1,903 nt of DNA, taken from Escherichia coli (lineage in GTDB: Bacteria > Pseudomonadota > Gammaproteobacteria > Enterobacterales > Enterobacteriaceae). The translations under genes were made by a program, and so were the position numbers. Within the stretch, counting starts at the first letter, position 1, and each line of letters starts with the position of its first letter. The stretch lies in the NCBI RefSeq assembly GCF_003334255.1, contig NZ_QOWU01000143.1, one strand, 5' to 3'. Of this stretch, positions 1-1,903 are shown piece after piece. The notes under the pieces were generated by a model. It did not search any database and was not told the origin of the DNA. It was given only the letters and a program-made list of their open reading frames with translations.

Positions 1-65
1 AGTTATCGTGAGAGTAATTCATCGGCACGTTAAATCATATCAGGCGTAATACCACAACCCTTAAG

Positions 66-299
66 TTAGCGCTTATGGGACTGCATCCCCCGCGGTCCCT
101 CCATCAGAGCCCGGTATCGACGGTAATCCTCCTCCGTGACACCCCACTGAGCGGCCTGTTGCTGCAGCGCCTGTGTGGTGGTACTGACCTGCGAAGAGGC
201 CTGCGTGCGTGTGCCCTCGGGCGCACTCTCCCGTACAGCAGCCACCGTCTGCAGGGAAATGAGCAGCATGAGCACCGGTGACAGATTCTTCATTTTCAT
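66..299 (-). CDS. Small Sec-secreted protein (77 aa precursor, ~56 aa mature), function unknown
   Basis: ORF 66..299 (-). ATG 299-297 lies 4 nt after the upstream stop (TGA, 306-304); SD GGAG is 7 nt upstream within the previous gene. N-terminus MKMKNLSPVLMLLISLQTVAA|V looks like a Sec signal peptide with an AXA-type cleavage site (VAA). Mature part is Gln/Thr/Ser-rich, then a charged C-terminus (GVTEEDYRRYRALMEG). Short length lowers confidence. Confidence 0.6.
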   Translation of the reverse strand: MKMKNLSPVLMLLISLQTVAAVRESAPEGTRTQASSQVSTTTQALQQQAAQWGVTEEDYRRYRALMEGPRGMQSHKR

Positions 300-303
300 T
301 TCA

Positions 304-1071
304 TCACTCCACCATGACCCGGACCTGACGTCCGTTCACCCGGAACGAGGCTTCTCCCCGTCCGGCACGCTCAAGCATCCAGCCGGCCGTGCTCTCCCCT
401 TCACCCAGCAGCGTCACATCTGAAAGACGGGTAAATCCACGGGGAGCCACCGCAGCATATGTGCGTCCGCCACGCTGCTCCGTGCCTGTCAGCACAAACG
501 GTGCGCTGCGGCTGATAACTGAAATGCCGGAAGAGCCCTTTTTCTGGCGTGGCGTGACCGCCGGTGTGCTCTTCACCGTGCCCGTTCCTTTCGCAGATGA
601 CGGTGATACCGGGGTGAATGGCGCCTTCTCCAGCTTCTCCAGTCGCAGGTCATACGCACGAAGCGTTTCTCCCTGCTGCGCCAGCGTGGCCTGCAGTGAT
701 GCCAGGCTGGCGGCCATCTGACCAGTGCGTGCATGCTCTTCCTCCGTCAGTACAGGTCGTTGCTCCAGCAATGTCAGTCGCTCCGTCACGCTTTTCAGCT
801 GTTTTTTGGTTTCAGCCAGCCGGGACCTGAGCGGTTCAAGCTCACTTCCCGACAACGCGAGAGCATCTGAATACGTTTTCATTTGCCCCTCCAGTGCGGC
901 AATGCGTTCATCCTGCTCCCCGCTGTAACGATAGAGGCCGCAAACCGCCAGAATGGTCGCAACCAGAACGGTCAGTACAAATCCCACGGAAAGCATGGGT
1001 GACACACAGGTCCACCCATCAAGAGGAGATGAATGCACTGACGGTAATGTCTTCTGTTTTTTTTCACTCAT
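304..1071 (-). CDS. Bitopic membrane protein (255 aa): short cytoplasmic N-terminus, one TM helix, long coiled-coil region, Ser/Thr/Pro-rich linker, small C-terminal domain. Family unassigned.
   Basis: ORF 304..1071 (-). Start ATG 1071-1069 overlaps the upstream stop (ATGA); SD GGAG lies 8 nt upstream inside the lipoprotein gene. Lys-rich N-terminus MSEKKQK, then a single hydrophobic segment PMLSVGFVLTVLVATILAVCGLY (about residues 25-47, nt ~931-999). Residues ~52-140 are Leu/Ala/Glu/Lys/Gln-rich with heptad-like spacing, ending in LRLEKLEK. Linker PFTPVSPSSAKGTGTVKSTPAVTPRQKKGSSG, then a ~70-aa C-terminal domain. Confidence 0.8.
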   Translation of the reverse strand: MSEKKQKTLPSVHSSPLDGWTCVSPMLSVGFVLTVLVATILAVCGLYRYSGEQDERIAALEGQMKTYSDALALSGSELEPLRSRLAETKKQLKSVTERLTLLEQRPVLTEEEHARTGQMAASLASLQATLAQQGETLRAYDLRLEKLEKAPFTPVSPSSAKGTGTVKSTPAVTPRQKKGSSGISVISRSAPFVLTGTEQRGGRTYAAVAPRGFTRLSDVTLLGEGESTAGWMLERAGRGEASFRVNGRQVRVMVE

Positions 1072-1646
1072 TTTTTAAGCTCCGCTCCTGCGCCCCTGAC
1101 ACCGGCCGGTACCGGCGCCAGCTGGCCCGGCGGCAACTGATAACCTTCCCGCAGGCTGTGACAGACAACCCGCTGCACATCATCAACTTCAAGTTGCCAC
1201 GCCGGACCGGCCATCATCTGCAGGGCGGTACGCAACCTGAGCGGCCCCGTCTGATACTGCACTGCCGGCAACGCCTGACGATAAAGCACCCCGTTGGCCG
1301 GTCCGGTGGCACAGAGCGTGTAGCCCGACTGTTTCAGGGCATAACGCATCGCATCTGCCACCGTCGGCTTCAGGGATGCCGGAATACGGATGTCAATCAC
1401 CTGGGAAAGGGGATCCCGCTGTACCGCATCCGGATGAGTGTTAACCAGCAGATAGCGGTCATAACGCACCACCTCGGGCACAGTCGTCCCAGCGTACATA
1501 TCAGGGCTGGCCGGACGGACATTATTGCTGACCGTCACCGACGGTACCGGAACAGCCGCATCCCGCTGCAGCAGTTTTTGCTGCCCCTGACAGCCAGTCA
1601 GAAGTACGCAGGCGGACAGCACGGAAAGAAGAAGGGATGTTTTCAT
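1068..1646 (-). CDS. Predicted lipoprotein (192 aa), probably outer-membrane sorted; first gene of a three-gene envelope operon. A conjugation/pilus-associated role (PilL/TraV/VirB7/DotD-like) is hypothesis only.
   Basis: ORF 1068..1646 (-). ATG at 1646-1644 is preceded by SD GAGGT (1656-1660) with 9-nt spacing. N-terminus MKTSLLLSVLSACVLLTG-C has a positive n-region, hydrophobic core and lipobox L-T-G-C with Cys19 (codon 1590-1592); Gln at +2, so no Asp inner-membrane retention signal. Pro/Gly/Ala-rich C-terminal tail (QLPPGQLAPVPAGVRGAGAELKK). Composition is protein-like, unlike the R/H/C-rich antisense frame. Stop TGA overlaps the next start (ATGA at 1068-1071). Confidence 0.8.
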   Translation of the reverse strand: MKTSLLLSVLSACVLLTGCQGQQKLLQRDAAVPVPSVTVSNNVRPASPDMYAGTTVPEVVRYDRYLLVNTHPDAVQRDPLSQVIDIRIPASLKPTVADAMRYALKQSGYTLCATGPANGVLYRQALPAVQYQTGPLRLRTALQMMAGPAWQLEVDDVQRVVCHSLREGYQLPPGQLAPVPAGVRGAGAELKK

Positions 1647-1740
1647 CAGGAAGTTACCTCTGCGGTGAAGTGATAAAGTCAGAGGTCAATTTGCAGAAGA
1701 AGTCCAGACCGGCTCAATGAACAACTGATTTCCGGTTGAC
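1647..1740 (-). promoter_or_regulatory. Promoter and 5' leader region of the lipoprotein operon (exact -35/-10 uncertain)
   Basis: Only non-coding interval between the upstream terminator and the lipoprotein start. Candidate sigma70-like hexamers on the minus strand: TTGAGC (1717-1712), 17-bp spacer, GCAAAT (1694-1689). An alternative -35-like TTGACC sits at 1689-1684 but has no good -10 partner. Matches are weak; the TSS cannot be fixed from sequence. Confidence 0.35.
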
Positions 1741-1768
1741 AAAAAAAACGCCTGCACAAGGCAGGCGT
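1741..1768 (-). terminator. Rho-independent (intrinsic) terminator for the upstream minus-strand gene
   Basis: On minus-strand RNA: GC-rich 7-bp stem (1761-1767 pairs with 1749-1755; GCAGGCG/CGCCUGC), 5-nt loop (1756-1760), then immediately U8 (complement of the A8 run at 1741-1748). The plus-strand side has no downstream U-tract, so it is unidirectional. Confidence 0.6.
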
Positions 1769-1799
1769 GGTGTAAAAGGGAACAGAGTCTTCCGGTTAT

Positions 1800-1903
1800 T
1801 CAGTCCTGATTTAGCGCACCATTACGCTGCACCGGGACGTAATCCAGAGCCTGCAGCAACTGCTCATCTGTCAGATCCAGAAAATCTTTGATTTCCTCCA
1901 GAG
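1800..1903 (-). CDS. 3' end of an upstream CDS (partial; 5' end outside the window), product unknown
   Basis: Minus-strand frame is open from the window edge (1903) to TGA at 1802-1800 and encodes ...LEEIKDFLDLTDEQLLQALDYVPVQRNGALNQD*. An intrinsic terminator follows ~32 nt downstream on the same strand. Only 34 codons are visible and there is no start in the window, so the coding call rests on open frame plus terminator placement. Confidence 0.4.
   Translation of the reverse strand, partial: LEEIKDFLDLTDEQLLQALDYVPVQRNGALNQD

Follow-up and report, generated by a model that had tools for sequence, protein, structure and literature searches.

Integrative and conjugative elements (ICEs) of the PFGI-1/ICEclc/SPI-7 family are vehicles by which resistance and virulence genes spread among Enterobacterales; examples are SGI4 and the islands of Escherichia coli and Shiga toxin-producing E. 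coli (STEC). Here, we analysed a stretch of 1,903 nucleotides from E. coli (contig NZ_QOWU01000143.1 of assembly GCF_003334255.1; the whole stretch is called the window), which by its gene content is part of an E. coli ICE of this family. In the window, a cargo slot of variable content, downstream of ssb, meets the type IV secretion (mating-pair) operon, of which pilL2 is the first gene, and the question is how transcription of this operon is set apart from that of its upstream neighbour.

In ICEclc, BisDC activates the transfer genes in a few per cent of the cells in stationary phase; BisD is a ParB-like CTP clamp and BisC a DUF2857, FlhC-like protein (PMC7423338, PMC9286271, PMC12409273), the DUF2857 domain of BisC and the ParB domain of BisD being described in PMC7423338. 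Genes of the type IV secretion system (T4SS) are expressed only in transfer-competent cells in this family (PMC9286271). The ICEclc gene orf73676 corresponds to conj_PilL/iceB7 (PMC10018362), and whether the operon of pilL/iceB7 has a promoter of its own has been disputed since 2010, when a processing site was proposed, through a silent fragment in 2022 to a binding peak in 2025. In the first of these studies, reverse transcription PCR (RT-PCR) gave no product across the orf73676 junction, Northern blots showed separate RNAs of 8.5 and 6 kb, 5' rapid amplification of cDNA ends failed, and the authors favoured processing of a 14.5-kb transcript between ORF74436 and ORF73676 (PMC2892462). In 2022, the reporter fragment UR73676 showed no subpopulation (bimodal) activity and slightly raised population-wide fluorescence, and read coverage rises at this site (PMC9286271). 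Chromatin immunoprecipitation sequencing (ChIP-seq) in 2025 then revealed a BisC peak upstream of iceB7, read by the authors as a probable additional promoter (PMC12409273). A further precedent is PAPI-1 of P. aeruginosa, a related pKLC102-family ICE in which a PilL-family gene likewise heads a conjugation-apparatus operon and a weak promoter needs an element-encoded activator, the pilL2 promoter being controlled by TprA and MvaT (PMC8565334). However, pilL2 of PAPI-1 heads a type IVb pilus operon and not the T4SS core, and its TprA site lies 254-287 bp upstream.

The junction in the window resembles that of iceB7 in its orthologous first gene, in the order of genes (PilL, small membrane protein, TIGR03759, transglycosylase ... 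TraD, TIGR03747), in the intergenic gap (153 bp here, 139 bp in ICEclc, where RT-PCR detected no read-through) and in that the element encodes ParB-type and DUF2857 proteins resembling BisD and BisC. The two differ in their upstream neighbours, which are ssb and cargo here and the long cluster orf81655-74436 in ICEclc, and in their control sequences: the 27-bp motif and the bisS site of ICEclc are not detectable here, and their place is taken by an intrinsic terminator of canonical form and by a conserved box specific to enterobacteria. This is an ordinary but well-conserved gene boundary of an E. coli ICE and nothing of a new kind; its value lies in precise coordinates and in comparative support on the ICEclc question, as a terminator and a promoter-like footprint at the same enterobacterial junction favour a separate, insulated unit and name the precise bases.

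Comparison supports well the proposal that the pilL2 operon is an independent transcription unit, which a sequence-only reading of the window had put forward. That part of the proposal is supported by a conserved and covarying terminator, the third in a series, and by two conserved sequence blocks; the accompanying idea of an activator is a matter of inference. The same reading had placed the end of a minus-strand gene at 1800 and a strong one-way terminator behind it, and translation, the RefSeq coding sequence (CDS), a hairpin scan and folding all agree. The scan found a stem of eight pairs (six of them G-C) with a 5-nt loop, ACGCCTGCCTTGTGCAGGCGT at 1768-1748, followed by TTTTTTTGTC. The arms are ACGCCTGC (1768-1761) and GCAGGCGT (1755-1748), the loop is CTTGT and the U-tract of seven U occupies 1747-1741; the T-run as a whole is 1748-1741, its first T pairing with A1768. 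This hairpin begins 31 nt past the stop codon, and stem-loop plus T-run (35 nt) fold with -14.1 kcal/mol (z = -4.6), a value that none of 200 shuffles reached. On the plus strand, the hairpin is followed by GGTGTAAAAGGG and no T-run, so that termination is expected to be unidirectional.

The region upstream of pilL2 was collected from E. coli ICE variants, Salmonella SGI4, Serratia, Klebsiella, Pantoea, Mixta, Erwinia, Chimaeribacter and Xenorhabdus, and ten lineages from seven enterobacterial genera were compared. Eight of the ten lineages have a hairpin of -11 to -16 kcal/mol with 7-9 T at a distance of 15-16 nt upstream of the conserved box, with stems that differ in sequence (GCCTGC/GCAGGC, GCTGAC/GTCGGC, GCGCC/GGCGC). 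When these eight hairpins are aligned, 95% of cells are paired as against 26-56% in slid controls; compensatory changes occur in two of the eight pairs, and the covariation score was reached by only 4 of 500 shuffles. Hairpin and T-run are kept next to different upstream genes, be it rpn, rpnSs, DUF2442 or STY4534. In the STEC genome that matches the window, three minus-strand terminator-like sites lie in series between ssb and pilL2, and the hairpin of the window is the third. Structure and conservation thus confirm 1768-1741 as a predicted intrinsic (Rho-independent) terminator; a search of Rfam returned no match near any gathering score. In a beta-proteobacterial ICEclc-like element on a plasmid of Ralstonia sp. 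RRA.1 (L025 933-950), too, a terminator-like hairpin that ends in a T-rich tail precedes pilL by about 110 nt.

Between the terminator and the ATG of pilL2 lie 94 nt (1740-1647), in which two blocks stand out. The first is the box AGTTGTTnATTGA (1726-1714), 12 of whose 13 positions are conserved in at least nine of the ten lineages; the second is GCAnAnTGA (1694-1686), in which C1, A2, A4 and T6 of CAnAnT are invariant in all ten. Both blocks are 90-100% conserved, as against 30-80% column identity in the spacer between them, the length of which is nevertheless kept at 17-18 bp. Because the four-fold sites of pilL2 are nearly randomised, with only 32-62% identity between the window and the other lineages, the blocks are under selection. 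Three features, the hairpin with its T-run, the box and CAnAnT, are kept whatever cargo lies upstream.

We read the two blocks as a putative promoter consisting of TTGAGC (1717-1712), 18 bp and CAAATT (1693-1688), which would have the right sigma-70 geometry and weak hexamers; the TTGA of the -35-like hexamer is kept in eight of the ten lineages. From this assignment, a transcription start at about 1681-1679 is predicted, with a leader of about 35 nt to the ATG that includes the Shine-Dalgarno (SD) sequence AGAGG. The sequence-only reading had called the candidate sigma-70 hexamers of the interval weak, and a scan of the whole window with a threshold of 9 of 12 hexamer matches agrees, finding no site anywhere; the core hexamers are TTGAGC (4/6) and CAAATT (3/6), the latter with the critical A2 and T6. 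The seven conserved bases just upstream of the -35 hexamer, AGTTGTT, are a candidate activator site because sigma-70 does not use them. A natural mutant of the box exists in E. coli JNEC-KY171 (L017 about 1900-1950), in which IS600 is inserted inside it: CATTGAGCC and the -10-like block stay by pilL2, and the AGTTGTT half and the terminator have moved about 1.2 kb away.

On balance, we consider it probable that the pilL2 operon is an insulated unit with a weak promoter of its own, which is kept low and switched on by an activator of the ICE. The hairpin and U-tract at 1768-1741 would stop transcription of the rpnSs cargo gene upstream, which to judge from the literature on Rpn is presumably expressed continuously, and would shield the costly transfer operon from read-through. 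The 94-bp interval would carry the promoter, made up of TTGAGC, the variable 18-bp spacer and the weak CAAATT, and this promoter would most likely be kept low and be turned on by the ICE's own activator at transfer competence, as in ICEclc. We infer the low level and the switch from the poor core hexamers and from two proteins that the E. coli ICE encodes, a TIGR03764 ParB protein (379 bits) that is BisD-like and a DUF2857 protein (E = 1e-65, plus a weak FlhD match) that is BisC-like. These same two proteins make a BisDC-like control plausible.

Several observations weigh against this explanation. The core hexamers match the consensus at only four and three of six positions, below the threshold of the scan, and in six lineages an inverted repeat, ACAGTGA...TCACTGT, has the -10-like block as its left arm. 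In ICEclc, the fragment upstream of orf73676 was without subpopulation-specific activity and the 2010 study favoured processing (PMC9286271, PMC2892462). A position weight matrix (PWM) built from the published instances of the ICEclc 27-bp motif (S3 Fig of PMC9286271) reached at best 1.7 in the window, as did 17% of shuffles, and found no significant match in the other enterobacterial regions upstream of pilL2 or of the RAQPRD-family gene, the head of a second T4SS operon. The bisS loading site (GAGCTATCCCCnGGGGATAGCTC), to be expected near ssb, had no match with up to three mismatches, nor was there a comparable palindrome, in the 17.6 kb searched. Finally, none of the other SGI4 operon heads has a copy of the box, so that nothing ties it to a regulon-wide activator.

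Failure to detect the 27-bp motif weakens membership in a BisDC regulon but not the analogy with it, because the regulators have diverged. Upstream of pilL of Ralstonia sp. RRA.1 (L025 976-1002), the same PWM scored 12.1, a value reached by 1% of shuffles, in line with the promoter that was proposed upstream of iceB7 from ChIP data; the match includes ATTGTTTGC, identical to P67231. Dependence of the pilL2 promoter on an activator or an alternative sigma factor, as the sequence-only reading had suggested, would therefore be plausible: the BisD-like and BisC-like genes speak for an activator, the ICEclc motif and bisS were not detected, and the sites considered for sigma-54 and sigma-E were rejected. 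For sigma-54, the GG-to-GC spacing of TGGAC-N-CTGCA is one base short and the GG is missing in other lineages. For sigma-E, GGACTT-N16-TCTGA (1705-1700, 1683-1679), which we take to resemble the rpoH P3 type, has its -35 part in the non-conserved spacer and its TCTGA in E. coli lineages only, and was rejected as a conserved feature. Sites for IHF (WATCAR-N4-TTR) and LexA (CTG-N10-CAG) are each mismatched or one base off and are not conserved. GTTGTT was also considered as a regulon-wide motif, since 7 of its 23 occurrences in the E. coli ICE fall in intergenic regions that make up 9% of the sequence, an enrichment, and was rejected because among the SGI4 operon heads examined it is present only upstream of pilL.

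The inverted repeat leads to the alternative that has to be taken most seriously, although we regard it as unlikely: the promoter might lie elsewhere, either at the T-run junction (TTGTCA 1742-1737, 17 bp, CATTGA 1719-1714) or further upstream, and GCAnAnTGA would then be part of a 5' untranslated region (5'-UTR) in which pairing controls mRNA stability or translation. In the six lineages, ACAGTGA/TCACTGT is a perfect repeat of 7-8 bp whose right arm abuts the SD sequence and whose loop varies between 9 and 13 nt, a pattern more in keeping with an RNA hairpin than with an operator bound by protein, and Xenorhabdus has a compensatory AGTC/GACT version of it. In the lineage of the window, this repeat has decayed, and ACCTCTG (1686-1680) can instead pair with CAGAGGT (1662-1656), forming a 7-bp stem of -9 kcal/mol that would sequester the SD sequence. 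In view of these pairings, the conserved blocks could be an operator or part of the 5'-UTR rather than a -35 and a -10. In addition, the 3' end of the T-run provides a TTGnnn hexamer in several lineages. However, no lineage has the key T at position 6 of the alternative -10 (nATTGA), RNAalifold, applied to the stretch that begins with the -10 block and runs to the ATG, found no consensus structure, the stem of the window is modest in comparison with shuffles (z = -1.9; 9 of 200 fold as well), and the two pairings differ between lineages. The constant 17-18 bp from TTGA to CAnAnT is, moreover, the spacing that sigma-70 requires. The position of the transcription start separates the two readings: a start upstream of 1694 would make the repeats leader hairpins and our promoter assignment wrong, and a start near 1681 would make them features at the DNA level, such as an operator.

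Rather improbable, in our view, is a plain constitutive sigma-70 promoter without a dedicated activator, the low expression of which would follow from promoter weakness alone. TTGA, 17-18 bp and CAnAnT do form a complete sigma-70 architecture, the ICEclc motif was not detected in the window, and UR73676 slightly raised fluorescence across the whole population in ICEclc. Yet sigma-70 has no need of AGTTGTT, which is (near-)invariant upstream of the -35 hexamer, T4SS genes of the ICEclc family are expressed only in transfer-competent cells (PMC9286271), and the element encodes BisD-like and BisC-like proteins.

Least probable of all is that the operon has no separate promoter and depends on partial read-through or antitermination from promoters of the ssb/topB region, with the intergenic region as an mRNA processing site, since the processing of the 14.5-kb transcript in ICEclc (PMC2892462), the missing bimodal activity of the UR73676 reporter and the lack of a strong sigma-70 site are outweighed by three canonical terminators in series upstream, the conservation with covariation of the last of them, promoter-like blocks kept at sigma-70 spacing, the BisC ChIP-seq peak of 2025 upstream of iceB7 and a cargo between ssb and pilL2 that differs completely between lineages, because of which an upstream promoter would sit at a variable distance.

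A bolder extension of an insulated operon with its own promoter is speculative, and we give it little credence: hairpin, T-run, 13-nt box and -10-like block might form a fixed “insulated docking site”, in enterobacterial ICEs of this family, with the box and the inverted repeat that overlaps the -10 as the operator of a regulator whose specificity is other than that of the BisDC motif of ICEclc. If this were true, defence and toxin-antitoxin cargo (Rpn/RpnSs, DUF4160/DUF2442, insertion sequences (IS)) could be swapped in upstream with the control of the transfer operon undisturbed, and the enterobacterial branch would have rewired the control of its secretion operon. The slot between ssb and pilL2 is a hot spot for toxin-antitoxin and antiphage cargo (L001, L002, L014-L020, L004-L012); the genes upstream of pilL2 comprise rpn alone, rpn plus a small gene, a DUF4160/DUF2442 pair, STY4534, an IS element or a Ner-like gene, and some lineages carry nothing there. 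Homology between lineages resumes at or inside the terminator hairpin.

The gene that ends at the terminator, whose product the sequence-only reading did not recognise, can now be identified from its homology: it is of the rpnSs type and repeats, as a gene of its own, the part of the adjacent Rpn nuclease gene that encodes the C-terminal antitoxin domain, RpnS. Rpn nucleases are toxic, and small RpnS proteins, whose translation starts inside rpn, neutralise them (Zhong et al. 2023, PMC10400941). Some rpn loci have a second, stand-alone copy downstream that derives from the adjacent gene (rpnSs, e.g. ypaA), and repeats of four amino acids, which start 8-20 residues past the RpnS methionine and vary between strains, set partner specificity; for RpnC, a mismatch of one repeat abolished neutralisation in an experiment (PMC10400941). 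In the window, the minus-strand translation of 1901-1800 is LEEIKDFLDLTDEQLLQALDYVPVQRNGALNQD, with the TGA stop at 1802-1800. The RefSeq CDS in E. coli STEC2018-553 (L001 7724-8092) ends at the same base and encodes, as annotated, 122 aa from a GTG start at window-equivalent 2168, directly downstream of a gene for a 307-aa Rpn-family nuclease. This nuclease, RpnL, matches the RpnA model (E = 2e-61), and the small protein is 92% identical to its residues 193-307, plus one extra LEKG; the C-terminal region of TIGR01784 (positions 184-272) matches the small protein as well (E = 1.4e-7). Both the coding part and the terminator lie within direct repeats whose period is 430-442 bp (L001 7663-8083 and 8104-8513, window-equivalent 1739-2159 and 2180-2589), and the same hairpin is also present 3' of the full-length rpn. 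The identity of 92%, the direct repeats and the duplicated hairpin together argue for a tandem duplication of the 3' end of rpn (about 115 codons) including its terminator.

The product of this gene is probably a protein of about 66 aa with the RpnS antitoxin domain, as a strong SD and ATG, AAGGGGGTGATCATG, precede MTIAEQLEEKG(LEKG)RAEE... with a start at about window-equivalent 2000. As in the published rpnSs genes (ypaA/rpnESs, rpnCSs), a variable RpnS domain is encoded on its own immediately 3' of a full-length rpn, the 3' end of which was duplicated in tandem to give rise to it, and the LEKG variation begins about 8 residues past the internal methionine. In contrast to the rpnSs genes of E. 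coli, which belong to the chromosomal rpnC or rpnE loci, this copy is borne by an ICE, it receives no Pfam DUF4351 call and it has one repeat more than its RpnL partner. The count of LEKG repeats varies from 0 to several among the alleles of E. coli ICEs; in this allele, the repeat number of the small copy differs from that of the partner toxin by one LEKG (one as against none in RpnL), and strains E23 and AR_0089 have other alleles with matching or quite different repeat numbers and with different C-terminal tails. DUF4351 (PF14261) was not called on the small gene and a match to DUF433 over the tail visible in the window was weak (E = 0.004); the DUF4351 annotation of stand-alone RpnS genes applies “in some species” and is no strict requirement (PMC10400941). 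No Rpn model was matched in PADLOC, and the RpnA-S structure 7th0 in the PDB aligned end to end with the 66-aa product, weakly (E = 0.5).

Table 1. Features of the window; positions count from its first base and “-” denotes the minus strand.
Feature	Position	Strand	Basis
rpnSs-type gene, last 34 codons and TGA stop	1800..1903	-	Translation; gene runs past the window edge
Predicted intrinsic terminator	1741..1768	-	Hairpin scan, folding energy, covariation
Near-invariant box AGTTGTTCATTGA	1714..1726	-	Alignment of ten lineages; overlaps the -35-like hexamer
-35-like hexamer TTGAGC (4/6)	1712..1717	-	Alignment, sequence reading
-10-like hexamer CAAATT (3/6)	1688..1693	-	Alignment; inside the conserved block GCAAATTGA (1694-1686)
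Shine-Dalgarno AGAGG (1661-1657) and pilL2 ATG (1646-1644)	1644..1661	-	
pilL2, iceB7 ortholog	1068..1646	-	TIGR03748, annotation
Operon gene 2, 255-aa membrane/coiled-coil protein	304..1071	-	Open reading frame list, annotation
TIGR03759-family gene, 5' part, interrupted by IS186/IS421 end	66..299	-	
IS4-family IS186/IS421 terminal sequence	1..76	.	100% matches to thousands of IS421 copies

All genes of the window lie on the minus strand (Table 1). From base 77 to base 1903, the window matches the chromosome of E. coli STEC2018-553 with 100% identity, the L001 coordinate there being the window position plus 5924, and the region is present in about 54-75 of 5,426 complete E. coli genomes. Around this match, STEC2018-553 carries the ICE genes for ParA, dnaB-PI, ParB family, DUF2786, DUF2857, STY4528, PFL_4669 and topoisomerase III (topB), as well as STY4534 and ssb and then the TIGR037xx conjugation genes and traD. 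The product of pilL2 matches TIGR03748 (conj_PilL) with 128 bits against a cut-off of 64, its translation contains the lipobox LTGC, and the gene order that follows is syntenic with operons of the PFGI-1/ICEclc type; on these grounds, pilL2 is identified as the first gene of the type IV secretion operon of the ICE, encoding a predicted DotD-like outer-membrane lipoprotein. The stop codon of pilL2 shares bases with the start codon of the gene behind it (ATGA, 1071-1068), which suggests translational coupling within the operon.

When the region upstream of pilL2 was searched for 14-mers against the whole ICE with up to two mismatches, only the duplicated terminator and one further sequence were found: the exact 14-mer ACTTCTTCTGCAAA from the spacer and -10 region recurs on the same strand at L003 2765-2778, within codons 6-10 of the STY4534-family gene, against a chance expectation of about 0.04 for such matches. 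A conserved (G/A)CAAATAGAGTTTATCGCTGA precedes the RAQPRD-family gene (L013 about 40470-40560 in E. coli; L023 about 43190-43230 in SGI4), and GCAAAT(A/T)GA there resembles the -10-like block of pilL2; as a lead, the heads of the two operons could share a core element.

An open reading frame of 51 aa on the plus strand (1736-1891, TTG start) is antisense to rpnSs and spans the terminator; it was rejected, as nothing supports it. At the other end of the window, ICE homology starts at base 77, where IS186/IS421 is inserted in the TIGR03759-family conjugation gene. The same gene is intact in the closest genome, and because of this insertion the ICE of the source strain may be impaired in transfer.

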